Notes under the pieces: generated by a model
Told to the model about the DNA's origin: nothing
The model's database searches: none
The model's input: the letters and a program-made list of their open reading frames with translations, nothing else
Program-made: the position numbers and the translations under genes
Shown here: piece after piece, positions 5,157 to 62,398 of the stretch
Position numbering within the stretch: position 1 is the stretch's first letter
How the letters are laid out: every line of letters begins with the position of its first letter
Virus record (IMG/VR): IMGVR_UViG_3300010429_001166
Source of the DNA: an uncultured virus (IMG/VR IMGVR_UViG_3300010429_001166)
Lineage: Duplodnaviria; Heunggongvirae; Uroviricota; Caudoviricetes
Direction: 5' to 3' (one strand)
DNA: 64,000 nucleotides

Positions 5157-5373
5157 CACCACGCCTCTTTAACTCGTCCACGAAAAAGCTTATGCGCGCC
5201 TCTATAGGCACAAATGCGTACGCGTTCAACTGCGGCGCGCCAATCGTGCATTTTGTTCTCCCCTTCAACAACCATTCCGTGTCAATGAACACCCAATGCT
5301 GCAGTGTCGGGGTGTCCACTTTAACGAGTGCTTCTCGATAGCCGCGAACTACAGCCGCTGTTTCCTCATCCAT
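5143..5373 (-). CDS. Hypothetical protein
   Basis: Start overlaps the upstream stop. Confidence 0.5.
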   Translation of the reverse strand: MDEETAAVVRGYREALVKVDTPTLQHWVFIDTEWLLKGRTKCTIGAPQLNAYAFVPIEARISFFVDELKRRGDDAA

Positions 5374-6596
5374 CACGGGTTCAGCGAACTGATGTGCATG
5401 GTCTTGCCGGTCTTGGCATACCAGTCGATATTATCAATCACGCCCCAGAGCACCGGCACTTGCAAGCCACCGGGTTCCGCACCGATGTAGCCATCGGTCA
5501 GGAAGATCACGCACTGCGGCTTGATGTTGTTCTGATTGATGTAGTCCACCGCACACTGCGCATCGGTGCCTCCGCCACCGGCAGGTTTGAGAGCCTGCGC
5601 AATGCTGTCGTACTCATGCGGCATGAACTTCTGCACGCCCGCTACGCGGGTGTCCCACCAGATGAGCGTTACGGATTCCGGTCTTGCGTCCTGTGCGACG
5701 CGCGCAATCTCACCGAACAGCAGTGCGTACAGACCAGCCATGGAGCCTGACGTATCGGCAGCGATCACCAGCGGCCCGACACTCTCGTTGTACAGCGTAG
5801 GGAGCAGAACCCTGCCGCCCGTTGCTGCGAACATCCGGCTGTTGATGCGCGACCAACGCGCCACGTCATTGCCACGCACCACGCTGCACACGAAGTCGCG
5901 CAGATGCTCGCGCCAGTTAGTACGACGCGGTAAAACCGCGCCCAAATCTAGGGCACCACCGGAGCCACTTTTACTACGACGCTTGACGCTCTCGCGCAGC
6001 AGTTCGCCTTGCTGGATCGCCTCCTGAATCTCCTTGTCGAGCTTTTCAAGCGTCTCAGGGTCGAAGTTGCCATCCCGATGCTCGTCCATCGGCTCGCCGC
6101 GCCCTCGTCCACGTCCCTTGCCGCCCCCATCGTCATCGCCATTCTTCAGCAAGTCCATGAAGACCTTGGGGAACGACATGTTGTAATACTTCGGGTCGAT
6201 GATGGGCTTGGGTTCAACCCACCACTCGATGAACTTGCCATCCGGGTCGGCCTGCTGAATCAACCCGTTCACTACGTAGTCCGCTGCACAGTTGGCAATG
6301 TGCCGGTTGTGCTTGAACGCTTCCTTGTACATCGTGCAGTGAAGCAACATCTTGTGGAAGTTCTCGTGCAGTACCACGGCACGGGTCTGCGCCCGGGTCA
6401 GCGGAGCCATGAACCCTTCGCCATACCAGCAGTCGCGCCCATCGGTGCACGCTGTGGGGAACATCGGGTCAATCTCAGCCTTGCCCATCATCATCACGCC
6501 CGAGATAAGCGCGAACTCGGGGTGATTCATGATGTCGAAATGCGCCGCGCTGATGCGCTGCTGCGGCGTCATCACACTCCAGTTGGCGTCTGACAT
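5373..6596 (-). CDS. Putative metallopeptidase with C-terminal VWA domain (DUF2201-like)
   Basis: PTACTDG, HExxH (VLHENFH), N-A-D--VN, MIDAS DTSGS, GGGGT and LTDG motifs. Confidence 0.88.
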   Translation of the reverse strand: MSDANWSVMTPQQRISAAHFDIMNHPEFALISGVMMMGKAEIDPMFPTACTDGRDCWYGEGFMAPLTRAQTRAVVLHENFHKMLLHCTMYKEAFKHNRHIANCAADYVVNGLIQQADPDGKFIEWWVEPKPIIDPKYYNMSFPKVFMDLLKNGDDDGGGKGRGRGRGEPMDEHRDGNFDPETLEKLDKEIQEAIQQGELLRESVKRRSKSGSGGALDLGAVLPRRTNWREHLRDFVCSVVRGNDVARWSRINSRMFAATGGRVLLPTLYNESVGPLVIAADTSGSMAGLYALLFGEIARVAQDARPESVTLIWWDTRVAGVQKFMPHEYDSIAQALKPAGGGGTDAQCAVDYINQNNIKPQCVIFLTDGYIGAEPGGLQVPVLWGVIDNIDWYAKTGKTMHISSLNP

Positions 6597-6626: not shown

Positions 6627-7769
6627 TCACTTGCTGCCAGCGAAGTATATTTGGTGTTCTTTCAAAAGCTTCAGGAAGCGCTCCACCAGCGCGTAATACT
6701 GAATCTTCTGTTCGTGACGCGCGGCGGTGACAAGGAACACGCTCACCATCTCGTCCTTCATGCGCTCAACGTACTGCAGGAACTTGTCCGCTTCGGTGCG
6801 GTTGTCCGTGTCCAGCACCATCTTGAACACCTGCACCACCTGTGCCGTGGGGCTCGTGGGCAGCGGGCAGTTCTTCGGGTCTTGCAGGATGCGCTCCTTG
6901 GTGGGCAACTCACGCCCGAAGCGCACATACGTCTCCAGTTCACGGCCCGTCTCAACGCCCAACGTGCCGCACAGACCCGCTTGAAGAACGTGCGGCGGGA
7001 GCTTGATACCCTCTTTGATCTGATCGCTGGCTGCGTGCAGCGAGCGCGGCGATGCGTACGCCGTCTGTTGCACAGCGGGGTTGAAGATGTACGGATTGTC
7101 CCGCGCCAAATCCTTCTTCTCGTATTTGCCACCCGGTGCGTAGTCGATGAAGCTGTCCAGCACCTTCGGGTACTGCGTCATAAACGCGATGATTTCCGGT
7201 GCCCAGTTGTTGGCCGATGCGTACGCCACCAGTTCTTCCGCATTGGGCTTGCGCATCGTGACCACGATGATGCGATTGCGGGTGTGCGCAGGCATGAAGT
7301 CGCCCAGCCCTTCAACACCCAAGTTCGTCGTACCGAAAATCACGCTGCCTTCCGGAGCTACGAAACTACCCACCCGGTGCTCGTAGAAGAACGGAGCCAG
7401 CGACGCCTGAATGTGCTTCGGTGCCTTCGCCAGTTCGTCCATCATCACCACGACAGGGCGCGAACCATTGATGCCCTTCTGGTTCTTCGCATTGATGCCG
7501 TAGCGTTCGTTCGGCAGGCCGCGCGTGGTGCCACTCTCCATGTCCGGCACCGGGATCACGTGATCGCCAATGTCCAGTTGCGCGCAGTCCACCGGAGTGG
7601 GGAACAGGTGGCTGGCGAACTGCGGCATCGCCTTGAGCGTTGCCAGCAGCGCAGACTTGCCGATGCCGTTCTCGCCCTGCACAAGCACCGTGCGCTTGTG
7701 ACCGACAGCAGCGATGAGGGAAGCAACTTCGGTGTGCGAAAGAAGCGGAGCGCCTTGATAGGTCATCAT
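6627..7769 (-). CDS. MoxR-like AAA+ ATPase
   Basis: Walker A GENGIGKS, Walker B VVMMDE, sensor-1 TTN, arginine finger RNR, SPRS motif; adjacent to the VWA gene. Confidence 0.88.
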   Translation of the reverse strand: MMTYQGAPLLSHTEVASLIAAVGHKRTVLVQGENGIGKSALLATLKAMPQFASHLFPTPVDCAQLDIGDHVIPVPDMESGTTRGLPNERYGINAKNQKGINGSRPVVVMMDELAKAPKHIQASLAPFFYEHRVGSFVAPEGSVIFGTTNLGVEGLGDFMPAHTRNRIIVVTMRKPNAEELVAYASANNWAPEIIAFMTQYPKVLDSFIDYAPGGKYEKKDLARDNPYIFNPAVQQTAYASPRSLHAASDQIKEGIKLPPHVLQAGLCGTLGVETGRELETYVRFGRELPTKERILQDPKNCPLPTSPTAQVVQVFKMVLDTDNRTEADKFLQYVERMKDEMVSVFLVTAARHEQKIQYYALVERFLKLLKEHQIYFAGSK

Positions 7770-7823
7770 TGTTGTACTACTCCTCTGGTGTTGTAAGTGA
7801 CTGGTGTCACTGTGTTTTGGTGG

Positions 7824-7852
7824 AATTTACTTACGTGCAGCGCGAATGTCAA
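7824..7852 (-). promoter_or_regulatory. Sigma70-like promoter for the AAA/VWA operon
   Basis: Minus strand TTGACA-17 nt-TAAATT, about 55 nt upstream of the ATPase start. Confidence 0.7.
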
Positions 7853-46371: not shown

Positions 46372-47850
46372 ATGGACATCCTCCAGCTTCAGGAAATGGC
46401 CAACTCGATGCCGACCCCGGCATTGCTGGAAGCGGTCAACAGTCCGAACAGTCCCGTCCCCGCGTTCCTCGCGCTGACCGTGTTGAATGAGCGCAAGAAT
46501 ATGCAGGCGGGTGCCAACGCACAGCAAGCGCAACAGCAACTTGCCCAACAGCCGCCGACGGTAGCGCAGGGTGTGACGCAAGGTGTGGCTGGGTTGCCGA
46601 CTGGTACGACGATTCCGCAGCAGGGGTACGCGCAGGGTGGAATCGTGGCGTTTGATCGCGGTGGGATGATTCCTTATAGCCCCGGTGCGCTGCGCCCGCC
46701 GATGTACTCGCAGGATGAGCCAGTTGTGCCCGGTCCAGATCACGGTCGTTCGATTCTGACGAAGCTGCCTGAAATGTGGGAGTGGTTGAACAAGTTCACG
46801 CAACGCGCCAATGTGGACTACAACTACGTGAATCAAGGCTACGGTAACGAGGGGCAGCACGGCCTGCCTGCGCTGACACGGCCAACGCATCCGGGCATGA
46901 ATCAGGCGGACTACAGCAACGAGCCTTCGCACCTGCGAAGCACGAGCACGAGCTATCCAATTGGCCCCGCCCGCCCAAGCGGAGTTCCCAGCACCGCAGT
47001 CGGCGGTGGCATCGGCGGCGGAATGCGCCAGCAATCCGGCTATCCGGACTTCGTTGACCCACGTACCGGCGCTGCACCCCGCATGACAGAGGAGCAACGC
47101 GACGCCGAAGTGATGCGCCAGTACGAGCGCATCAAGGCAATGTATGGCGAAGACGTTGCGCAGCAGTTCATCACTGAAATCAAAGCCGAGCGCGGCAAGC
47201 TCGATCAGCGCTATACCGACAACAAGAACGAAGCGTGGCTGCGCGCTGGCCTTGGAATGCTGGCCGGTCGTTCGAAGTGGGGCGCGGTCAATATCGGTGA
47301 GGGTGGCCAACAGGGTCTGAACGCGTATCAGGCAGGCCGCGCAGCGATTGATCGTGATGGACGCGATCTGCGCCGTGAAGAGATGGCTGCGCGTATGGGC
47401 ATGCAGCAACGGCAGGATGTGCTCCGTGGTCAGGCGCAGACGCAAGCGGATCGCGCAGCGGATCGCACCGACCGCACCCGCGCCGAAGACATCGCGGTCA
47501 ACACCTCCATGATGGAGCACAAGGTCAAAGCCGCGCAGTTCGGTCTGGACAGTCGCAAGGTCGATGCGATGTTCGCGGAGGTGAGCGCGCGGCTGGCAGC
47601 GGTCAAGGAATCGGCGGCGGCACGGGGGGATGAGCGCATGTTGCGAGTTATCGATGGTGCGTACAACGGTGCAGTTAAGCAGGTGTTGGAAGGCATCAAG
47701 GACGACCCGTTCGCGCTGAAGGATTTCAACGAGAATCCCGGCAAGTATGCCGACAAGATCGACCGTGCTTTCCAGCAACGCATGTCTGCGACGCAAGGCC
47801 AAATGTCGCGCATGCAACGTGGTAAGGCTTCTGCTTTCGGACTGGACTGA
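46372..47850 (+). CDS. Internal virion / ejection protein
   Basis: YAQGGIVAF motif, helical C-terminal half. Confidence 0.7.
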   Translation: MDILQLQEMANSMPTPALLEAVNSPNSPVPAFLALTVLNERKNMQAGANAQQAQQQLAQQPPTVAQGVTQGVAGLPTGTTIPQQGYAQGGIVAFDRGGMIPYSPGALRPPMYSQDEPVVPGPDHGRSILTKLPEMWEWLNKFTQRANVDYNYVNQGYGNEGQHGLPALTRPTHPGMNQADYSNEPSHLRSTSTSYPIGPARPSGVPSTAVGGGIGGGMRQQSGYPDFVDPRTGAAPRMTEEQRDAEVMRQYERIKAMYGEDVAQQFITEIKAERGKLDQRYTDNKNEAWLRAGLGMLAGRSKWGAVNIGEGGQQGLNAYQAGRAAIDRDGRDLRREEMAARMGMQQRQDVLRGQAQTQADRAADRTDRTRAEDIAVNTSMMEHKVKAAQFGLDSRKVDAMFAEVSARLAAVKESAAARGDERMLRVIDGAYNGAVKQVLEGIKDDPFALKDFNENPGKYADKIDRAFQQRMSATQGQMSRMQRGKASAFGLD

Positions 47851-50800
47851 TGGCGTACTCGCTGACGTTGCCTGACGGCACAGTCGTTGACGGGATCAAC
47901 GACAAGTACAGCCGTGAGGAGGCTCTGTCTCGCATCCGTGAAAAGATGCCCGAGGCGTTCGACACACGCCCAGCGTCACAGCGGTTCTATGGCGACATGC
48001 CCAGTGTCGCTGCACCAACTACCCCGCCTCGCAAGGGGCTCATGGCGTCGTTCTCCAAGGGCGCAGAGTCGCTTGGTTCGTCATCACTCACCGGTATCAA
48101 GTCCGTCTTCGGCAACGCAGCCGATGCCGCAAAGGAAGGTATAGCCGACAACGACAGGCTCGATGCGAAGTACGCGCAGGAAGTGTCGGGCGCGAAGATC
48201 AAGAAGGTTTTCGAAGAGCAGGGATTGGGCGCAGCGGCTGCAGAAGTCATGCGCCAGTTCCCCCACGTGCTTGCGGAGCAGGCACCCAACATTGCGTTGA
48301 CGATTGCGGGAGCGAAAGGTGGCGCGCTTATTGGTGGTGGTGTTGCTGGCCCAGTGGGCGCGGCTGTCGGCGCGGTGGTTGGAGGCGCGGGCGCGCTTCT
48401 TCCCCAGTACGTCGGCAGTAACGTTGAACGACAAGCCAGAGCCCAGCAAGAAGCTGGACAAGCAATCGCGCCTGACGTTGGCAAAGCAGCGCTCACGGGC
48501 GCGGCGCAAAGCGCTCTAGATTACGCATCCCTGCGATTGCTCGGCGGTAACGTCGTCGGCAAGTGGCTGGGAATGAAGACCAGCGAAGAAGCGCTGAAAG
48601 CGGCGGCTATTCGCAGTCTGAAAGCGTCCGCAGGACTGGGTGCCGCGAAAGGTCTGGCTGAAATCCCTACGGAAGTGGCCCAGCAGGTGCTGGAGCGCGC
48701 GCAGGCAGGGCTGTCGCTCACCGATGACAAGGCACTGGCAGAGTATGGCGAGGCTGCGTACGCTGCTGGGCTCGTGGGTCCGTCGCTGGGTGGTGTGGCA
48801 GGCGTGGCGGATCGCTCCGCCGCACGCGGCACGATTGAACAGCAGGAGCGTGAGAAGGCTGCAGCCGACGCGGCGAAGGCCGCGAAAGACAAAGCTGCGT
48901 TTCAGCAGACGCCTGAGTACCTGAACAGCGTCGAAGGGCTGACCGCACAGCGCAGCAAACTGCACGAGCAGAAGAAAGAACTCGTCAAGCAGATCAAGCA
49001 CGCCACCGGGGAAGAAAAGGATGCGTTGACGGAGCAGCACAAGGGCGTGCTGGCGCAGATCAAGGAGTTGAGTGGACGGATCGATCAGGCGAAGAAGTCG
49101 CCGCTCGATGTGTTCATCGACAGCTTCGACAAGGTTGCAGAACCCACGGTGCGCGGCAAGCCCGCTGCCCCGGCATCGACTGGAGATTTCCTACCCGGGG
49201 TGAGCAACGAAGATGCTGGCGTGTCGCCTGCGGAGGCGGCGCGACCAAAGGACTTTGCGCCGGACTACCAGAACGCGGATGCAACCGACGCGTTTTTGCT
49301 GTCGCTTACTGATCCCGCTGCGTACAAGCTGTGGTTGAAGCAGTCGGCGCAGGACAGCTACGACCCGATCACCGGCAACCAACCCAACAGCGCGACACGT
49401 ACCGACCCGTATTCAGTACAGTGGCAGCAGGCTCCGTCCACAGACGTATCGCCGGATGCGTATGAGCTAGGTGAGTCCAACGCCGTGCCGTATGGTCAAG
49501 GTCCGCTAGCGGAGGGACTGGAAGACCTTGACGCCACGACTATCGACTCCCGCGTGCAACGGATGCGCGAGCGGCGTCTTCAGGAGCAGGAAGACGATCT
49601 ATACGGTAGAGCCGTTGCCGCCACGGAGAACTGGTCGGAGAAGGCCGCGCAGGAGCGCACGGCAACCGGTGAAGTTCACCCACCCTTCGTGCGCTACGGA
49701 CGTAGGAATCACCAGCTTGCGCAACTACTACGTTTGAACGGCAAGAAGATGGTCGCTGGTGAATACAGCGACAACGATATTCAAGCGGCCATCGATGAAC
49801 GCATCCGCGCGCTGAAAAGCGAACAGCAAGCACTCGGCAATCAGAAACTGTACGACCGTCGTGTTGACGAGCAAGGCGACAGCGTAACCGGGCTCGATGT
49901 CGATGCAGACCTTCTGAACAAGATGGCTGCCAACGACGCGATGATGGAACAACTCCAGCACCTGCGTCAGTTGTATGCACGCACAGCGAACACCACACCG
50001 GACAACTCCGCGAAATTGCTGGACGAGTTCAGCGCCACGCCGCCACAACGAGAAAAGCCGAAGCGCCCAGTTGTCGAGCCCGCGCCTATTCCCACCAAGA
50101 AGGCCATCTTCCGTTCGCCGGAACCGGCCAGTACGTTGTCGGATAAACGGCCTGTACTACGGATGGAGTCGGTCACGCCCAACGAGCGTGCGTGGCGGAA
50201 GAACAGGAAGGAAGAAATCGCGCAAAAGCGCGATCAATTGCTTCGGTACTACGAAACGCTGCTGACAGAAATCCATCGCGGCGAGTTTTTCGGTTCGCAG
50301 TTTTCACCGCGTCGCCTGTTCAACAAAGACAAAGCGGAGTCGCGTTACCCGACCAAGAGCAAGCAAGCTGCAGCAATGATCCGCCAGATTGTCGAATTGT
50401 CTGTTGCGGAAGCGGCGGAAGCCCACGCGCTGAATGGCGATAGGCTGTCACGCACACAATCGCAGGTGTACAGCCACCGCATAGCGAACATCCTGCGCGA
50501 TTACCTCTCGCGTGCGCAGGCAAACGCCAATCCCGGCAAACCGGTTCCCATGCCGACGTTAGACATGGACAGCCAAACCCGGGAAGAAGACACGGAGGTA
50601 AACGCCCGTAACGTGCCGTTCGGTGACATCAATAAAGCGATGGCCGCGATGCGCAAGGAAGTGCAGCCGGAAATCGAGAAGATGCAGCGCAACCTGCTGC
50701 GTCAAACACCGAAACGCCAGCGCGCAGAAGGCGAACGTCAGCTTGTCCTGACTAGCCAAACAGAAGCATCGGAAGCAACGCGTCGCCAGCGCGAGCGCGG

Positions 50801-53800
50801 AACGACGAAGCAGCAGGAGCAGGACTACGTTTACGAGCGGGTGCAAGAAGCGTTAGAAACTCCCGAGCGTCTGGATGCGCTGGAGCGCATGGAACGCGCT
50901 CAACGTGAAGGCATATTTCCGAAACGTGGGGCCGCAGCACCCACACCGGCAGCGCCAACGCCTGAAGCACCACAAGTACCGGGGCGAGCACCGAAGATTG
51001 CACCGCCGACAGCACGAGAAGCACTTGAGCTTGCCGAACAAGCCCTGCGCGGTAGCAACCGCTCAACGGTTACGCCGCAATTGCTCGCAGACATCGAAGC
51101 GCTTGCCACGAACCCCACTCCGGAAGGCGCGGCCAGTGTCGTCCAGCAACTGCGCCAGATCAGCGATGTCAACCAAGAAGACGTTGATCAGCAGGAGCTT
51201 TTCACCGGGCAGGACACCCCGCAGGTACGCATCATCCGTCGCACGCCGTTCCTGTTGCGCAGGCTGATCAATTCGCAGCAAGTGCAAGTGCTGCGTGACA
51301 TGGTGCGCCCGCTGGACAAACTCATTGCTGCGTATGACAAGCAGATTGAAGAACTGAACGCGATCTTCGATGAGCAAGAGCTTCGTTTGATGGATCGTGC
51401 TACCAACGGTGCGTACTCACGTGTACTGGAACGTTTCGAAGCATGGAAGGATTCGTTGAGCACGCTGCGCATGCTGGCAGACCGTGTGGACAGTCTCAAC
51501 ATCGAGGGATACCGCAACAACTACGAGGCGGTGGAGCAAGGCATTCAGGGTGTGCGTGCGGGGTTTGACGAGGAGTTGGCCAAGCTGAACGACCGTATTT
51601 TTCGAGAACTGGGCAAGAAGCCGAAAGACAAGGCCGACAACGTTCCCTTCTACGAACTGTATGGTCGTCTGCAGGATTTGAAAGTGTCGTTGCTGCGTGG
51701 GGAAACGTTCGAATCTCCTGCACCGATTACAGAAATCGAAGCACGCGAGCGCGACGCATCGGAGAAGAAGAACCGCCTGCTGCCGATGCAGACGGCCAAG
51801 GGTGAAGCCACGCGCACGACGCTCACGCGGGATGAACAAAAGCGCCAGCAGGAAGCGCGCAAGCGGGCGCAGGAGAATGAGCAGGCGCGGCTGCAAGCAG
51901 GGCGCGAACTGGTAGCGCGCATCAGGAAGGCCGAAGAGGTTGACCGTAAAGCGAAGGAAGCTGCACAGGAGAACCTGCAGAAGCTGCCGGTCAGCGCCAA
52001 GCAACGCGTCGTGTCCGATGTCATTCCGAACAAGAACGAGAAGATGCCGCCGCGCGTGCGCACGGCGAAGATCATCACGAAAGCAAGACCTGATACGTGG
52101 GATTCGCTAGGTCCGCGTTGGGCTGAAGAGGCGTCGGAAGAAGGTCGGCAGATCGGTGAAGCTGAATACGATGCGCTGGGACCAATAGAACGCATCAGTG
52201 TGGACGAGTGGCGCGGGCAGCGCGACCGTGTGACAGAAGCGAAGGCCGAGCTTGAGCGCGCAGAAGCTGCGCTCACTGATGTACGTGGTGGTAGCAGGAC
52301 GCTGGGTGCAAACGCATCACACGCGAACATACGTTCTCCCGGTTCGCGCAGCTTTGGTCAAGAAAAGGTCAAGCCTGCCAAGCTCATGCAGCCTGCCCCG
52401 CGCAAAGGCAACGTCATGCAGATTCGTGCGTTGCAGCGCGCCGTGGAGAAGGCAGAAGAAAATCTGCTGCAAGAGATGGCAGTGCTGGACGAGTTTGCAG
52501 CGCGGTTGAAAAAGAAGATGTCGAAAACCGAAATCGACAAGGCGCTCCGTTTGTCTGAGCAGGCTGAAGACAACGACAAGATCGAACAGCTTCTACGCAT
52601 CGAACGCCAAACGGAAGGCGGCAAGCGCCCCGGGTTCGGTTCACAGATAGCGGCAGCCGCTGCCGAGCAACGCGCCGAAGGCAACGCACATCCTGCGGAG
52701 CAGGTTGCAACGCGCCCCGCGTACATGCCGCACTCACCGAAAACCAGCAACTCCCCGCCCTACACCAAGAAGATGGCGGGCGAGAAGCGCAAGCGCGCCA
52801 AGCCTGCAACGCCGTTTGGTGAGAAACTGGACAAGGCGTTGGGTGGCGACACGGTGTTCCGTTCCGGTGAAGACACCGGCATTACGCCTGAAGAAGCAAC
52901 AGCAGGTGCGGCGAAAGCGCACAAGCTGCTGCCCGGTGTGAAGTGGTTCGGCACGCGGGATGAGGTGACGCCGGAAGTGCAGGCAGCGCTCGCTGCCAGA
53001 GGAGAGACACCGGCAACCGTCAAGGGCGGGCTGTTGCCTGACGGCACCGTGTTCATCATCGCGGAGAACCACAAGAGCGCAGCCGATCTGGATGCCACCA
53101 TACAGCACGAAATCATCGGGCACTACCGACTAGAGCGCACCATGTTCGGCAGCCGGACAGGCATGCGGTTGATGACTGATCTGGCCAGCAAGTACCTGCC
53201 CGATATGCAGGCTACGTACGAGCTATCGTCGCAACTAGGCTTCTCATCCGATGTACAAGGCGCAATAGTGCACGACGCAATGAGCGTTCCAGAAGCAGGA
53301 CGCCCGCTGTACATGCTGCGTGAAATTGTTGCGCGTGCATCGGAGATGAAACCGGCGTCATGGGGCGAGAAGGCCAAACGTTTCTGGAAGGAATTCGTTG
53401 GGCACTTCAAGCACGTCGCTCGTGGGCTGGGTTTGAACTGGAACCTGTCCGACGCCGATGTGTTCTACATGATCAAGCAGGCGCAGAACGGTGAACTGCG
53501 CAGTATCGAAGGCGGTGACACGATCTTCCGTACCGCCACACCTTCAGACATCAAGGCCATTGGCGACAGGTTCTACCAGCAAAAGTCGAACTGGAAGACG
53601 GCCAACGAACGTGGTGCTCTGGGGCACGCATTCCGCACGACGTGGATTGACCGGCACCACCTGATCCGTGTTGTTAGCGAGCGCATGGAGAACTCGCTGC
53701 GCGGGTTGAACATGCTGTACTTCGCGCGCATGGCCGACCGGGTGAACCAGTTCGTGTCAGAGGCGATGAGCCATGGCCCGATAACGCTGGAGAAGGTCGA

Positions 53801-56093
53801 TCTGAAAAACGGCGAGCACGCGTACATGTTCCGCGCCAACAAGGGCGCAAACGTCGCAGACATCATCAAGGTGCTGAAGACCGAAGACTTCAACTCGTGG
53901 GCCAGCTATATGGCGCTAGAGCGCGCCGAGAAGGTCGGCTACGACAAGCTCTTCGCCAACCGCCCCGACAAGCTGGCACCGGAGCAACGCCAGCGTCTGC
54001 TGGAGTACGGGCGCAACAACAAGGCGTTTCAGGATGCCCGTGCCATGTACCGCGAATACAACTCCGGGCTGGTTGATTTCGCCGTGCACTCCGGCTACCT
54101 GTCGAAGCACGCGGGCGAGGAGATGAAGTCGCGCGACTACATCCCGTTCTATCGCAAGGATGACAGCACCGGCAAAATTCTCATGGAAGGCGAAGACCGC
54201 CCCATCGAAATCGGCAATATCCGCGACAACAAGGAGCTTGCGGCGCTGTTTGGCAGCGACAAAGACCTCAACGATCCGTACGCCAACATCGCGCGCAACG
54301 CACGCCTGCTGATCGGCGGTGCCATCCGCAACCAAGCGGCCAAGAACACCGCGATGGAGCTTGCCAATATCGGGCTCGGTCACATCGTCAACACGCGCAC
54401 GCACAACCGCGAGGCGACAGGGCGCAACGTGATTCACTTCCGGATGGACGGGCAGGAGCGTTCGTTCTGGATGGACACGTCGCAAAACCCGGCTTTCGCG
54501 GACATCCCCGCCGACCTGTTCGTGAAGGGCATGGAAGGCATCGTCACCACACTGCCCACGTTCTGGCGGCTCATGTCGATCCCGACGCGGGTACTGCGCG
54601 ACTTCATCACCCGCAACCCGTTGTACGCAGCCCGCCAGCTTGCCCGTGACCCGCTGCATGCATGGATGGCCAGCGGTGCGGACTTCAGCATCACTGGCAA
54701 CGCGTTGAAGCGGGTGGGCAACCTGTTTATGAACAGGGACGAGACGGGCAACCTGTTGCGTGAGCGCGGCATGGTCGGTGGTCAGGTGATACAAGGCACC
54801 GACGAAGACATGCGCAAGATTATGAAGCGCCTGCACGCGGGGCACGATGTCATCGACATGCTCGCCAGCAAAGCGGATCAATTGTCTGTATCAGCAGACG
54901 CCGCTACCCGCGCCGCGTTGTATGACAACTTCCGCAACCAGCACGGAATGGATGAATTCCGCGCCTACATGGCGACGATGGATTCGGTGAACTTCGCAAC
55001 GCGCGGTGCGTCGCCGTCTGTGCAAGCCATCAACATGATGATCCCGTTCTTCAACGCGCAGATTCAGGGTCTGGACTCTGTGTATCGCGCGGTGACGGGG
55101 CAGATGCCGTTTAACGACAAGATGAAGGCCCGCCAGCGGCTGGCGACACGCGCTGCCCTGATGGCTGCCAGCACGATGCTGTACTACGCGATGGTGGAGG
55201 ATGAGGAGTGGTATCAGAACACGCCTGAGAACATCCGGCTGTCGAACTGGCTCTTCAAGATTCCCGGGGTCGATGAACCTATCCGCATCCCGATACCTTT
55301 TGAATTCGGCCTGCTGTTCAAGGCGGTGCCGGAAACCATCCTGATGGCGTCGAAGAGCGACCCGGAAGCGAAGGCTGCATGGGCAGCGCTGCGCAACATG
55401 GGCGTGAATACCATCCCCGGCGCGTCGTCGGCGGGCATCCCTGCCGCCATGAAGCCGGGTGTCGAAGCGATGGCGAACCACTCGTTCTTCACCGGGCGCA
55501 GCATCGTGCCTGAGTACCTGCAAGGCGAAGACCCAAAAAACCAGTACACGCCCAACACCACGGAAGCGGCCAAGACGATGAGCGCGATTGTCGATGCACT
55601 CACGCCGTTCTCCGTGTCGCCCATGAAGATCGAACACATCGTGCGCGGCTACACCGCAGGCATCGGCTTCGCCACGCTGCAGATGATCGACGCCACGTTG
55701 AGCGGAACGGAGTCCGAAGCCCCGGACAAGAAGAACAGCCAACGCATCCTGACCGGCCCACTGTTCCAGCCGGTGGACGGCAACGCCATCATCAGCCGCG
55801 CCTACGACGCCGTGAAGCGCATCGAGGCAGCGCAGGGGCGCATGCGCAACGCGGAAACGGAATTTGACAGGGAAGAGATGCAGCGCATCGCCGCAGAAGA
55901 GGCTACCGATCTGGCCATGACGCGCGAAGCAGGGCGCTTCAAGAAGCAGGTTGGTGAACTATCTAAGCTGCAGCGTCAAGTGAAGTTCCATCCAACGATG
56001 ACGGGCGCGGAGAAGCGGGAGATGATTGACCAGTTGCAGCAGCGGAAGATTGAGCTTGCGCGGTCGTTCGAAACTCAGGCGCAATTGCATTGA
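47850..56093 (+). CDS. Large polyvalent (ejected) protein with HE--GH zincin-like motif and C-terminal LPD38-like domain
   Basis: 2747 aa; Gly-rich TM-like N-terminal segment, QHEIIGH, IPFFNAQIQGLD, IPIPFEFG-LFK--PE, KIEH-VRGY. Confidence 0.8.
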   Translation: MAYSLTLPDGTVVDGINDKYSREEALSRIREKMPEAFDTRPASQRFYGDMPSVAAPTTPPRKGLMASFSKGAESLGSSSLTGIKSVFGNAADAAKEGIADNDRLDAKYAQEVSGAKIKKVFEEQGLGAAAAEVMRQFPHVLAEQAPNIALTIAGAKGGALIGGGVAGPVGAAVGAVVGGAGALLPQYVGSNVERQARAQQEAGQAIAPDVGKAALTGAAQSALDYASLRLLGGNVVGKWLGMKTSEEALKAAAIRSLKASAGLGAAKGLAEIPTEVAQQVLERAQAGLSLTDDKALAEYGEAAYAAGLVGPSLGGVAGVADRSAARGTIEQQEREKAAADAAKAAKDKAAFQQTPEYLNSVEGLTAQRSKLHEQKKELVKQIKHATGEEKDALTEQHKGVLAQIKELSGRIDQAKKSPLDVFIDSFDKVAEPTVRGKPAAPASTGDFLPGVSNEDAGVSPAEAARPKDFAPDYQNADATDAFLLSLTDPAAYKLWLKQSAQDSYDPITGNQPNSATRTDPYSVQWQQAPSTDVSPDAYELGESNAVPYGQGPLAEGLEDLDATTIDSRVQRMRERRLQEQEDDLYGRAVAATENWSEKAAQERTATGEVHPPFVRYGRRNHQLAQLLRLNGKKMVAGEYSDNDIQAAIDERIRALKSEQQALGNQKLYDRRVDEQGDSVTGLDVDADLLNKMAANDAMMEQLQHLRQLYARTANTTPDNSAKLLDEFSATPPQREKPKRPVVEPAPIPTKKAIFRSPEPASTLSDKRPVLRMESVTPNERAWRKNRKEEIAQKRDQLLRYYETLLTEIHRGEFFGSQFSPRRLFNKDKAESRYPTKSKQAAAMIRQIVELSVAEAAEAHALNGDRLSRTQSQVYSHRIANILRDYLSRAQANANPGKPVPMPTLDMDSQTREEDTEVNARNVPFGDINKAMAAMRKEVQPEIEKMQRNLLRQTPKRQRAEGERQLVLTSQTEASEATRRQRERGTTKQQEQDYVYERVQEALETPERLDALERMERAQREGIFPKRGAAAPTPAAPTPEAPQVPGRAPKIAPPTAREALELAEQALRGSNRSTVTPQLLADIEALATNPTPEGAASVVQQLRQISDVNQEDVDQQELFTGQDTPQVRIIRRTPFLLRRLINSQQVQVLRDMVRPLDKLIAAYDKQIEELNAIFDEQELRLMDRATNGAYSRVLERFEAWKDSLSTLRMLADRVDSLNIEGYRNNYEAVEQGIQGVRAGFDEELAKLNDRIFRELGKKPKDKADNVPFYELYGRLQDLKVSLLRGETFESPAPITEIEARERDASEKKNRLLPMQTAKGEATRTTLTRDEQKRQQEARKRAQENEQARLQAGRELVARIRKAEEVDRKAKEAAQENLQKLPVSAKQRVVSDVIPNKNEKMPPRVRTAKIITKARPDTWDSLGPRWAEEASEEGRQIGEAEYDALGPIERISVDEWRGQRDRVTEAKAELERAEAALTDVRGGSRTLGANASHANIRSPGSRSFGQEKVKPAKLMQPAPRKGNVMQIRALQRAVEKAEENLLQEMAVLDEFAARLKKKMSKTEIDKALRLSEQAEDNDKIEQLLRIERQTEGGKRPGFGSQIAAAAAEQRAEGNAHPAEQVATRPAYMPHSPKTSNSPPYTKKMAGEKRKRAKPATPFGEKLDKALGGDTVFRSGEDTGITPEEATAGAAKAHKLLPGVKWFGTRDEVTPEVQAALAARGETPATVKGGLLPDGTVFIIAENHKSAADLDATIQHEIIGHYRLERTMFGSRTGMRLMTDLASKYLPDMQATYELSSQLGFSSDVQGAIVHDAMSVPEAGRPLYMLREIVARASEMKPASWGEKAKRFWKEFVGHFKHVARGLGLNWNLSDADVFYMIKQAQNGELRSIEGGDTIFRTATPSDIKAIGDRFYQQKSNWKTANERGALGHAFRTTWIDRHHLIRVVSERMENSLRGLNMLYFARMADRVNQFVSEAMSHGPITLEKVDLKNGEHAYMFRANKGANVADIIKVLKTEDFNSWASYMALERAEKVGYDKLFANRPDKLAPEQRQRLLEYGRNNKAFQDARAMYREYNSGLVDFAVHSGYLSKHAGEEMKSRDYIPFYRKDDSTGKILMEGEDRPIEIGNIRDNKELAALFGSDKDLNDPYANIARNARLLIGGAIRNQAAKNTAMELANIGLGHIVNTRTHNREATGRNVIHFRMDGQERSFWMDTSQNPAFADIPADLFVKGMEGIVTTLPTFWRLMSIPTRVLRDFITRNPLYAARQLARDPLHAWMASGADFSITGNALKRVGNLFMNRDETGNLLRERGMVGGQVIQGTDEDMRKIMKRLHAGHDVIDMLASKADQLSVSADAATRAALYDNFRNQHGMDEFRAYMATMDSVNFATRGASPSVQAINMMIPFFNAQIQGLDSVYRAVTGQMPFNDKMKARQRLATRAALMAASTMLYYAMVEDEEWYQNTPENIRLSNWLFKIPGVDEPIRIPIPFEFGLLFKAVPETILMASKSDPEAKAAWAALRNMGVNTIPGASSAGIPAAMKPGVEAMANHSFFTGRSIVPEYLQGEDPKNQYTPNTTEAAKTMSAIVDALTPFSVSPMKIEHIVRGYTAGIGFATLQMIDATLSGTESEAPDKKNSQRILTGPLFQPVDGNAIISRAYDAVKRIEAAQGRMRNAETEFDREEMQRIAAEEATDLAMTREAGRFKKQVGELSKLQRQVKFHPTMTGAEKREMIDQLQQRKIELARSFETQAQLH

Positions 56094-59371: not shown

Positions 59372-59518
59372 TCAGGCGTGTTCGCGGGGGCTGTAGTCGT
59401 TCGGGTCGCGGCGGTTGTCCGCCGCAAACGCCAGTCGTTTGAACAGTTCCTCGTGCAGTGTGCGGCGGTCTTCGTCGCTGGCCAGTTGGTATGCAGACAG
59501 CAACTCGTTGGTGGTCAT
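59372..59518 (-). CDS. Small hypothetical protein
   Basis: MTTNELL; start overlaps the upstream stop. Confidence 0.5.
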   Translation of the reverse strand: MTTNELLSAYQLASDEDRRTLHEELFKRLAFAADNRRDPNDYSPREHA

Positions 59519-59793
59519 TGATCTTGCGAAGGCAGAAATCGACACGCTTTTCTCCACGCGGCGTCAGCCGTGCTGGCCGCTTTTAGTATGGTCAGAAGCC
59601 CACTCACCCGGGCTCTGTATGCAGGAGTGACGCTGCCACCTTTGAACCATGCGTAGACCGTGGGGCGGGTGGCTCCGGTGTACTTCGCCACGCGGATAAT
59701 CGAGAAGTCTAGCCGCACCGCCTCACGCCCAAGCTGATTTCCGAGCGTCAGCGGTGCTTTCAGCACGGCTCGTTTCAGTTGTGCGGATATCAT
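59515..59793 (-). CDS. Cro/XRE-like HTH DNA-binding protein
   Basis: SIIRVAKYTGATRPTVYAWFKG helix-turn-helix. Confidence 0.8.
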   Translation of the reverse strand: MISAQLKRAVLKAPLTLGNQLGREAVRLDFSIIRVAKYTGATRPTVYAWFKGGSVTPAYRARVSGLLTILKAASTADAAWRKACRFLPSQDQ

Positions 59794-59796
59794 GTC

Positions 59797-59822
59797 AAAA
59801 AGGGCCACGTTGCCGTGGCCCT
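59797..59822 (-). terminator. Rho-independent terminator
   Basis: AGGGCCACG-GCAA-CGTGGCCCT followed by TTTT on the minus strand. Confidence 0.8.
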
Positions 59823-61300: not shown

Positions 61301-61330
61301 GCGCCCCCGTGCGTGCCTGCCGTGGGGCGC
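61301..61330 (-). other. GC-rich hairpin 3' of the tRNA-like RNA
   Basis: GCGCCCC...GGGGCGC; no U-tract. Confidence 0.5.
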
Positions 61331-61345
61331 TCTCCTTGGTTTCCC

Positions 61346-61496
61346 TACCTGCTCAGTGCTGTGACGATAATGACTAACAATGCCGGTGTCTTAGCCACCT
61401 ATACGACCGATCCTTGAAGCAGGCAGAAGTGCTTGGGGGATCGGGTTGGATTTGAACCAACGTTTCCGGCAAATAGGTTGATGTACTGAGCAAGTA
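61346..61496 (-). ncRNA. Circularly permuted tRNA-like RNA (YrlA/Y-RNA-like topology)
   Basis: T-arm GTTGG-TTCAAAT-CCAAC, CCGATCC-C-CCA, 20-nt linker, GGATCGG, D-arm with GG, TGCCGG/CCGGCA stem, outer 12-14 bp helix. Confidence 0.8.
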
Positions 61497-61566
61497 CCTT
61501 GCGCTAACGGTGTCTAGGCGAAACGCAAACGAGATTGCGTGACACTGACGACAACGCTAACACTGC

Positions 61567-62337
61567 CTAGCCCTTCAACGGCTCCAGAATCAAGCCGGTA
61601 ATCTTGTCTGCAATCGAGCCCTGCACAACCGTCGTCTCGTTCGCGCGCATGCGCGCCTGCTTCACTTCAACCAGCAGTTCATCGAGACGCTTGATCGCGT
61701 CGGACTTCTGAATTGCCGTCGCTGCACCCGTGCGCCGCACCGTGGTGAACTTGCCCACCACAATGTCTTTGCCAATGGCCTGCACCTGCGCGGGGTGCTC
61801 CCTCGTCGCTTCCTTCAACGTCACCGGGACGATCTGCTTCTCGGTCTTCGTGGTTTCTTCCGGATGCACTGCCACCATCACGTTCTTGCCTTCGTCGGCG
61901 GCGGGCTTCCATTCCTTCGTTGCATCGACGGTCGGGATCGCAACGAACAGTTCGCGGATGCGCGTCAGCCGTGCCTCAAGGCCGAGCAACTGATCCACCG
62001 GCAGATCGATGAGCAGTGGCTGGCCTTGCCAGTTCACGGTGCCCACTGCACCCTGATTCGTCTTGTTCTTCTGGAACTGCAGGTCTTCCGCAGTCTTGAA
62101 GATGCCCAGCGCGTAATCGAGTGTGTCGAACACCGTGGTCGGCAGCGCCTTTTCTTCGCGCGCCGCCGCTTCGATTGCCTTGTTCTCCGCCGTATCTTCG
62201 ATCATGGCCAGCGACTTCGTGTGGCCTTCGAAGAAGTGCGACGGCGACTTGAACTTCTTCAGCGTGTCTTCGTACAACTGGTTCCATGCTGAAACGGTCG
62301 TCTTCTCCGCCGCCAGCACTTCGTGGAGCTTTGCCAT
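61567..62337 (-). CDS. Conserved protein of unknown function (256 aa), upstream partner of the tRNA-like RNA
   Basis: AGAGGA RBS; MAKLHEVLAAEK, K--TN--A, P---LL-LE--L, EATREHPAQV, VK-AR-RAN motifs. Confidence 0.85.
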   Translation of the reverse strand: MAKLHEVLAAEKTTVSAWNQLYEDTLKKFKSPSHFFEGHTKSLAMIEDTAENKAIEAAAREEKALPTTVFDTLDYALGIFKTAEDLQFQKNKTNQGAVGTVNWQGQPLLIDLPVDQLLGLEARLTRIRELFVAIPTVDATKEWKPAADEGKNVMVAVHPEETTKTEKQIVPVTLKEATREHPAQVQAIGKDIVVGKFTTVRRTGAATAIQKSDAIKRLDELLVEVKQARMRANETTVVQGSIADKITGLILEPLKG

Positions 62338-62369
62338 TTTCAATCCTCTGTTGTTGTAGTGTGAAGCGA

Positions 62370-62398
62370 ACAGTACCGGAGCATTTTCCGGGTGTCAA
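62370..62398 (-). promoter_or_regulatory. Sigma70-like promoter
   Basis: Minus strand TTGACA-17 nt-TACTGT. Confidence 0.7.

Follow-up and report, generated by a model that had tools for sequence, protein, structure and literature searches.

A DUF7873 gene and the circularly permuted tRNA-like RNA downstream of it: a candidate ribonucleoprotein cassette of phages and bacteria

The DNA analyzed here (the window) is a 64,000-nucleotide (nt) stretch of a tailed-phage contig, the uncultured virus record IMGVR_UViG_3300010429_001166, with terminase, portal, capsid, and adaptor genes. In its minus-strand replication block, an SNF2 helicase gene (63963-62404) is followed by a gene for a protein of 256 amino acids (aa), about 300 nt of noncoding DNA, a 131-aa gene, a 338-aa gene, a helix-turn-helix (HTH)-like gene, and a primase gene. 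A preliminary description of this locus had proposed that the 256-aa gene and the noncoding DNA behind it make up a protein-RNA module in which the RNA holds a circularly permuted tRNA-like fold. Each element of that fold was found on the minus strand exactly where it had been placed, and its conservation is now proven by comparison with related loci. The protein belongs to the family DUF7873 (PF25283), and the RNA, which starts at the stop codon of the DUF7873 gene and is about 275 nt long, is larger than had been described. The domain closed by a 5′ helix (P1), the terminal hairpin, the periodic repeat tracts, the two-headed forms, the stress-promoter boxes, and the accessory status of the cassette had been missed (Table 1). 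The comparisons show a conserved RNA that follows DUF7873 genes and carries one (in the window) or two permuted tRNA-like heads on a scaffold of U-periodic hexamers. We consider a two-gene ribonucleoprotein (RNP) cassette the best overall explanation, with a probability of roughly 0.6.

Table 1. Features of the DUF7873 cassette in the window, with their component strands
Feature	Coordinates	Strand	Basis
Candidate sigma70-type promoter, TTGACA-17 nt-TACTGT	62370..62398	-	Sequence; absent from the consensus-scan list
Promoter boxes TTGACA / TACTGT	62398-62393 / 62375-62370	-	
DUF7873 (PF25283) gene, 256 aa; putative RNA-binding subunit, predicted homodimer	61567..62337	-	Pfam; AF2; ESMFold2; conserved residues
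5′ RNA domain: helix P1 closing a 45-nt loop of U-periodic hexamers	61514..61570	-	Covarying P1; alignment A4; lag-6 autocorrelation
P1 strands	61570-61565 / 61519-61514	-	
Single-stranded repeat tract between P1 and P2	61497..61513	-	Alignment A4
Rod: helix P2 enclosing an internal loop and the tRNA-like head	61346..61496	-	Covariation in 19 RNAs
P2 strands	61496-61485 / 61357-61346	-	
Circularly permuted tRNA-like head	61381..61471	-	Sequence; covariation; Levitt pair; leader preferences
Anticodon-like stem	61471-61466 / 61386-61381	-	
T-arm	61461-61445	-	
Acceptor 3′ strand, C73, and CCA	61444-61434	-	
Acceptor 5′ strand	61413-61407	-	
D-arm	61404-61388	-	
3′ repeat tract (U-periodic hexamers) of the internal loop	61358..61380	-	6-nt U spacing conserved in A4
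Purine-loop hairpin (61345-61338) and terminal GC-rich hairpin (~61330-61301)	61301..61345	-	Covariation

In the window RNA, P1 overlaps the stop codon of the gene, and the outer helix P2 has 12 bp. The head runs in the order anticodon-like stem, 4-nt variable loop, T-arm, acceptor 3′ strand, 20-nt linker, acceptor 5′ strand, and D-arm, and the anticodon loop is missing. The acceptor has 7 bp, three of the four D-stem pairs are formed (A12-G23 is mismatched), and a G15:C48 Levitt pair is possible. The terminal hairpin has a conserved loop and no U-tract. A 281-nt stretch folds with a z score of −4.55 (0 of 200 shuffles as good), and the 161-nt core alone folds with a z score of −2.09 (4 of 200). 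A loose head detector gave two further matches in the window, at 47765 (+) and 37848 (−), which were taken as chance matches because they lie inside coding frames and have no canonical T-loop; about 0.3 are obtained per Markov-shuffled window. Since the detector also fires by chance, the window alone is insufficient proof, and the proof is comparative.

For the comparison, DUF7873 loci were drawn from capped scans. One scan gave 8 loci, two viral scans gave the best 80 out of 394 matches and 80 out of 94, and 80 matches each were taken from at least 536 genomic and at least 506 metagenomic ones; 10 cultured phages were added, duplicates and 4 short loci were removed from the viral set, and one short locus was dropped from the bacterial set. 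The test that the preliminary description had proposed came out positive: a T-arm-before-D-arm fold lies 3′ of most homologous genes, and it covaries strongly. The permuted head lies within 700 nt downstream of the gene in 113 of 135 nonredundant viral loci, the window included (24 two-headed), compared with 3 of 138 upstream and 1 of 125 further-downstream controls. Among loci from bacteria and metagenome-assembled genomes, 73 of 79 have a head, 33 of them at least two, compared with 1 of 77 upstream controls. When anchors are defined by sequence only, pairing at six or seven of the seven acceptor positions is seen in 192 of 221 heads, compared with a mean of 22.9 and a maximum of 36 in 500 partner swaps. 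In a clade of 19 RNAs (alignment A4), 91.5% of cells are paired, and 36 of 40 pairs show two-sided changes; the covariation is 0.752, compared with 0.248 after shuffling (0 of 500) and at most 0.20 in slid controls, for a structure that was itself derived from this alignment. Two-sided changes occur in all 8 aligned pairs of P2 (89.5% of cells paired) and in all 12 of the terminal-hairpin region (80.5%). P1 covaries, with 46 to 50 nt between its core pairs, in 15 of the 19 RNAs; the remaining four comprise one with an inserted hairpin, one misplaced call, and two without P1 by the rule used. Further, the Levitt pair switches between A15:U48 (131) and G15:C48 (85) among 227 heads, and sequence comparison therefore indicates that an L-shaped tRNA fold is under selection.

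These data also bear on the possibility that the RNA is an att site or what is left of two neighboring tRNA genes, which the preliminary description had regarded as fatal to its own proposal. The RNA does consist of tRNA parts and often lies near tRNA genes. However, compensatory changes occur at all seven acceptor positions and refute such an origin, ARAGORN called no tRNA or tmRNA gene in the window (where Rfam gave no meaningful match), and the RNA is conserved across phyla; we regard this explanation as exceedingly improbable.

Outside the heads, 180 RNAs show an identity at a lag of 6 nt of 0.321, compared with 0.267 ± 0.003. Lags 12 and 18 are also raised and lags 3 and 9 are flat, whereas lags 3 and 9 are the ones raised in a coding control; among lags 4 to 9, the highest identity falls at 6 in 112 of the 180. 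The alignment of the clade shows a U every 6 nt that is invariant or nearly so, and by eye the hexamer sequence varies by lineage. Because the repeat period is 6 and no signal appears at lags 3 and 9, a reading of the repeats as encoding a tag peptide was rejected. Fifty of the 180 RNAs are two-headed, with the extra head located, by eye, within the P1 loop.

Six of the 19 clade RNAs have an extra hairpin with variable stems and a loop like that of the Ser-UGA anticodon (loci L001, L004, L008, L023, L025, and L263 of our collection; A4 columns 140 to 175). Hairpins that satisfy a strict U34 anticodon rule occur near 13 of the 180 RNAs, with 1.1 to 1.3 expected, and strict C34 (6 versus 0.6) and A34 (6 versus 1.1) hairpins are raised as well. 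A general claim of anticodon hairpins was dropped since a loose form of the test was null, and only a minority signal under the strict rule is retained. As a separate observation, a tRNA body in canonical order, with an anticodon loop and a short or CCA-less acceptor, lies 3′ of the permuted head in several loci (L011 3691-3766, L013 3597-3669, L070, L073, L121, L140, and L153); GenBank lists two such bodies as tRNA genes, which may be misannotated parts of the DUF7873-associated RNA. The GenBank “tRNA-Sup-TTA” of Klebsiella phage Kp24 (L010 3518-3597) overlaps a second permuted head and is probably a miscall.

The view that protein and RNA travel together was borne out by the heads downstream of most genes and most clearly in Streptomyces. 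DUF7873 was found in 44 of 81 sampled Streptomyces genomes, and all 45 copies have the RNA less than 600 nt downstream on the same strand. Strong RNA matches were found in 3 of 37 gene-less Streptomyces genomes (L333, L334, and L335); each is a 3′ remnant from which most or all of the repeat scaffold has disappeared, and the gene has left no trace there. DUF7873 is present in 6 of 61 cyanobacteria, every time with a two-headed RNA. In viral loci, a tRNA gene lies within 3 kb of DUF7873 in 44 of 133 cases, and in cultured phages the gene sits within tRNA arrays; in Gordonia phage Phendrix (L018 257-785), the same array holds a tmRNA (89 bits with Rfam) that is missing from the features of the record. 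Clustering by BLASTP, which was not a targeted search for RtcB, gave no recurrent neighbor gene in 139 viral or 80 bacterial loci.

Such linkage could also arise if RNA and protein were co-inherited without forming a complex or if the RNA were a cis-acting 3′ element of the DUF7873 mRNA. The overlap of P1 with the stop codon in the window and the constant position of the RNA on the same strand just downstream would fit this idea, and the binding of one to the other is a prediction from sequence. Signatures of RNase P and CCA processing and the covarying tertiary pair do not fit it, small open reading frames (ORFs) or homing-endonuclease-like inserts sometimes part the gene from the RNA, and the scaffold has been lost in the gene-less genomes; we consider it very improbable. 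Homing-endonuclease-like ORFs were seen directly after DUF7873 or inside the acceptor linker in loci L034, L038, L057, L074, and L082.

The preliminary description had likened the motifs of the upstream protein to those of an uncharacterized family in actinobacteria and phages. The family is DUF7873, which is uncharacterized and common in both. The match scores 195.6 bits (cutoff, 27; E = 1.5e-57) and covers model positions 1 to 242 of 244; the family has 542 close matches, 1,888 clusters at 50% identity, and 75 phage records. The AlphaFold2 (AF2) model, with a predicted local distance difference test (pLDDT) score of 93.9, combines a long beta-hairpin with four long helices. Given three copies, ESMFold2 predicted a symmetric dimer with a score of 0.47 (best control, 0.16), with at least 75% of contacts agreeing between runs and a partner pLDDT of at least 77; the third copy was not placed confidently. 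Of 30 true (solved) pairs, 20 reached this mark, as did 1 of 23 single chains. These rates are only roughly applicable here, and modeling supports a DUF7873 homodimer. Conserved residues include K41, K90, R128, K164, K167, K211, K226, R229, R231, and several aromatics. At E ≤ 0.001, Foldseek matched nothing in PDB or BFVD, a sequence search of PDB found no match, the ESM Atlas returned DUF7873 members only, and no consistent NCBIfam or second Pfam family was found. The best structural neighbor of the model is 3kdq, a conserved Corynebacterium diphtheriae protein of DUF6847 (Z = 9.4; root mean square deviation, 6.9; 146 residues aligned), and profile comparison of DUF7873 with DUF6847 gave an hhalign probability of 0.3% (against a single sequence). 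The model has no clear fold match, and any relationship with DUF6847 is tentative.

The acceptor end carries signatures of processing. RNase P prefers a U at −1 and a purine at −2 of its leaders. Of 227 heads, 125 have the former and 201 the latter, C74 is kept in 214, and CCA is encoded in 126. The preliminary description had noted that the RNA has no G3:U70 and no tag ORF, and both points were confirmed: the window has A3:U70, G3:U70 occurs in 6 of 192 heads, and there is no codon periodicity. It had further suggested a two-piece, aminoacylatable RNA. The processing signatures speak for the two pieces, but since G3:U70 is so rare and all four discriminators are used in the 192 heads (A 77, U 64, G 38, and C 13), no identity element is conserved and aminoacylation as a general property is unsupported. 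In the accessible text of PMC4201824, Mycobacterium smegmatis YrlA, which has a 7-bp acceptor, is cleaved by RNase P and gains CCA.

The leader of the DUF7873 gene shares an 8-mer with its own RNA in 41 of 112 viral and metagenome loci, compared with 144 of 898 other genes, as expected for autoregulation. A conserved free-CCA design with no amino acid identity could serve to jam or sense a signal, in that the uncharged head would bind Rel/RelA or other readers of uncharged tRNA or that its cleavage would free a DUF7873 effector by the logic of RNA antitoxins. The repeats and the possible autoregulatory leader site do recall protein-sequestering RNAs, and the RNA is lost or decayed once the gene is lost. 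On the other hand, no enzyme or toxin fold was found for DUF7873 in the searches above, and gene copies without the RNA appear to exist, which argues against a strictly toxic DUF7873; we regard this possibility as improbable.

In the window phage, the helicase-to-131-aa-gene gap is 1,134 nt, compared with 51 to 125 nt in 40 nonredundant loci having both genes, and the 338-aa gene has 457 viral relatives, of which the best 80 carry no DUF7873 in the DNA fetched. Therefore, promoter, gene, and RNA constitute, on this sequence evidence, an accessory insertion of about 1 kb. As for the claim that the cassette has its own promoter, the boxes are present where they had been placed, but they match at only 6+3 positions and were not listed by a consensus scan. 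No terminator was called after the RNA in the window scan, and the promoter therefore probably also drives the downstream replication genes rather than the cassette exclusively. Among 203 viral and metagenome DUF7873 genes, from loci that were not de-duplicated between collections, 25 have a TTGAC..TANNNT promoter in the 130 nt upstream, with 1.0 expected. The promoter spacer (62376-62392) has a 5-bp inverted repeat, a possible operator. Elsewhere in the window, a second TTGACA..TANNNT promoter at 7852 (−) lies upstream of an AAA ATPase gene (6627-7826) and a DUF2201 metallopeptidase/VWA gene (5373-6596), an AAA/VWA pair that is also found near DUF7873 in loci L007 and L029; the small HTH-like gene lies at 59515-59808, and 47850-56093 encodes a 2,747-aa large polyvalent protein with an LPD38 domain, probably an injected virion protein.

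Promoters in bacteria may link the cassette to translation stress. According to the accessible text of PMC7157823, WblC activates 288 genes under translation-targeting antibiotics, HflX, ArfB, Hsp15, and SmpB genes among them, with a GAAAWY box 3 bp before the −35 element. Among 62 nonredundant actinobacterial DUF7873 promoters, 61 have TANNNT, and 41 of these 61 have an AT-only 5-mer at the WblC-box position, compared with 7 of 127 other gene starts and 2.2% of 716 TANNNT sites; 23 of 61 have at most one mismatch to GAAAWY, compared with 3.6% of control sites. These promoters are predicted to have a WblC/WhiB7-type architecture. In Anabaena, TrcR represses a tRNA array and rtcB via TGTAGTAT (PMC10272220, accessible text). 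This sequence occurs exactly in 4 of 9 cyanobacterial DUF7873 promoters, always at −147 to −155 (0.14 expected, in a post hoc test of sites first spotted by eye), and nowhere else in 58.9 kb. WblC and TrcR are both translation-stress regulators. The main texts of the Anabaena TrcR papers do not mention YrlA (0 occurrences).

The members of the WblC regulon named above would suit a ribosome-binding factor, in which the anticodon-less CCA heads would dock in the A, P, or E sites of split 50S subunits or stalled ribosomes and serve in their protection, hibernation, or rescue. DUF7873 would take the place of the anticodon arm, a role that SmpB plays for tmRNA. Apart from the WblC-like promoters, the retention of elbow, 7-bp acceptor, and CCA while the anticodon is absent would suit such a factor, and two-headed forms could occupy two tRNA sites. 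Yet there is no conserved charging identity and no codon-type periodicity, hence no tag ORF signal; the bulky scaffold would have to remain outside the ribosome, and detached anticodon hairpins would make no sense on it. We therefore place this explanation on the unlikely side.

The preliminary description had also reported no TROVE/Ro60 gene in the window, and none was found among the window ORFs scanned (the contig has 71.7 kb, of which the window leaves out about 7.7 kb). Four complete phage records also lack TROVE, as does the nearest virus record. Of the 81 Streptomyces genomes, 25 have both DUF7873 and TROVE, 19 DUF7873 only, 14 TROVE only, and 23 neither (Fisher p = 0.12), and Streptomyces copies on the same contig are at least 65 kb apart; the two occur independently. 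The cassette could still be a functional analogue of Ro60/YrlA, in which DUF7873 would be the scaffold and the head would tether RtcB, PNPase, or another repair or decay enzyme to damaged RNA. The head topology is the same as that of YrlA, TrcR also represses rtcB in the account available, and one gene of DUF6847, the family of 3kdq, lies between rtcB and rtcA. Against this stand the lack of a recurrent neighbor gene in the clustering described above and the weakness of the DUF6847 link, since a Z of 9.4 falls in the range of common helical arrangements and the profile probability is minimal; moreover, most YrlA acceptors stay closed (bioRxiv 10.1101/312249, accessible text), whereas the acceptors here look made for opening. 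We consider such a tether unlikely.

Within the RNP cassette that we prefer, DUF7873 dimers or higher oligomers would coat the hexamer tracts at about one site per 6 nt and stabilize the RNA, and we hold it quite likely that the protein binds and coats the tracts in this way. Host RNase P would then cut the acceptor linker, with 3′ trimming or CCA addition to follow, and the result would be a base-paired RNA in two pieces (three if two-headed) with real, mostly uncharged CCA ends; it seems probable that the acceptor is opened in this way and that its CCA end becomes free. It is also reasonably likely that the particle acts when translation is attacked. For the last step we tentatively favor a protein-stabilized tRNA decoy that would present the surfaces of its elbow, acceptor, and CCA, joined in a minority by a loose anticodon hairpin, and would soak up or trap enzymes that cut or modify tRNA, sparing the tRNA pool of the stressed cell or infected host. 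A decoy is favored over decoding because of the identity-less free CCA, the optional anticodon hairpins, and the residence among phage tRNA genes.

Several points weigh against this proposal. The case for protein-RNA binding is built on linkage, periodicity, and conserved basic residues, and the net charge of DUF7873 is about neutral (median, −1). The head went undetected at 22 of the 135 viral loci and at 6 of the 79 bacterial ones. Inspection by eye reveals a head in many of the viral misses, where the linker is long, the T-loop is odd, or an ORF has been inserted, and reveals none in a few. Encoded CCA is missing in 101 of 227 heads, and pairing of −1 with 73 is not avoided (63 versus 64 expected). 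Acceptor sequences vary freely, a poor fit to bait for one sequence-specific toxin, and a stoichiometric decoy would probably be weak against catalytic enzymes. The loose anticodon-hairpin test gave 73 matches with 71 expected, some strict matches may be neighboring real tRNAs, and the window RNA has no anticodon-like hairpin. The leader 8-mer enrichment is absent in bacterial loci (12 of 61 versus 240 of 1,132). Finally, the WblC and TrcR boxes are predictions transferred from related genomes, and an older TrcR direct-repeat signature, as given in the accessible text of PMC8421152, mostly failed, with a match in 1 of 5 promoters in one test and in 0 of 6 in another.

If these parts are joined, the system could be a Ro60-independent class of translation-stress RNP in which a DUF7873 oligomer reads the hexamer scaffold and shows one or two processed heads and optional anticodon hairpins. 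Such an “exploded tRNA” would answer to WblC or TrcR in bacteria and be a portable cassette in phages, used against tRNA-targeting defense or for ribosome upkeep; we give this synthesis slightly less than an even chance. The system itself is real, widespread, and apparently undescribed in the literature searched, a variation on the tRNA-mimic RNP theme and possibly a class of its own. A widespread RNA-protein system, present in about half of the sampled Streptomyces genomes, in some cyanobacteria, and in many phages, has been overlooked by ARAGORN and Rfam, and the large DUF7873 family gains a testable role.

No account of this RNA or of a DUF7873-RNA pairing was found in the literature within reach, which did not extend to subscription papers and supplementary motif catalogues. 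Among known systems, two-piece tmRNA with its partner SmpB resembles the cassette in its permuted gene order, an acceptor opened by processing, a CCA end, and the lack of an anticodon loop. Unlike tmRNA, the RNA described here is far shorter, has a full D stem and an anticodon-like stem, and has neither G3:U70 nor a tag-ORF signal; neither ARAGORN nor Rfam (RF00023) found a tmRNA in the window, and a tmRNA identity was rejected on the rarity of G3:U70 in the 192 heads and the flat lags 3 and 9 in the 180 RNAs. A permuted tRNA gene that splices to a decoding tRNA was also rejected, as the anticodon-like stem opens into the tracts and the rod in all 19 clade RNAs.

DUF6847 is alike in being the best solved-structure match and in the noncoding gap after the gene in 3 of 3 readable loci; it differs in that there is no significant sequence link and that the three loci have no permuted head or 6-nt period. 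These genes (L422 1501-1935 on the minus strand, L424 574-1291, and L425 ~601-1300) have 200 to 260 nt of noncoding DNA downstream, one gap with a T-arm and a 5-nt repeat signal and two with a similar hairpin, and the gene between rtcB and rtcA is followed by a 260-nt gap. No viral relatives of DUF6847 were found; it may possibly be a second protein-RNA family. CsrB, type III antitoxins, and TRAP-bound leaders are repeat-bearing RNAs that act as protein sponges. The DUF7873-associated RNA resembles them in its short single-stranded repeats, to which an oligomeric protein would bind, and in possible leader autoregulation, but they have no tRNA-like heads, whereas this RNA has contiguous hexamers and an unrelated protein family.

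The closest parallel is YrlA. As far as the accessible sources go, both RNAs have the order T-arm, acceptor hairpin, and D-arm, no anticodon loop, and tRNA tertiary pairs (RF02553; PMC4201824; bioRxiv 10.1101/312249), and both are encoded beside a partner protein in bacteria and phages. The partner is Ro60/Rsr for YrlA and DUF7873, of unrelated fold, here; in the accessible text of PMC7824862, tRNA-like partners are mentioned only for TROVE. By the same sources, YrlA is about 110 to 150 nt long and this RNA 275 to 400 nt, and a 7-bp acceptor with C74 or CCA is the exception in YrlA and the rule here; the 6-nt U-periodic scaffold with one or two heads is unlike YrlA. The Ro-binding motif GNCGAAN0-1G, located near the 5′ end of YrlA in the accessible text of PMC4201824, is absent from the window RNA and occurs in 11 of 230 heads, with 6.2 expected. 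RF02553 gave no match at E values up to 10 over 6 kb of the window, and its gathering threshold (69 bits) was not reached in 14 related loci; the two heads of locus L211 score 29 and 25.5 bits. Hence the YrlA-like topology without Ro60 that the preliminary description had pointed out holds for the order of the arms and does not extend to the Ro motif, the linkage, or the RF02553 threshold. Judged by sequence, the DUF7873-associated RNA is not a YrlA, and its head would work like a YrlA head. Permuted tRNA mimicry is thereby shown not to be tied to Ro60, and cultured phages and Streptomyces offer a small system for probing what an uncharged, CCA-ended, tRNA-shaped RNA does in translation stress or infection, the same question that YrlA faces.

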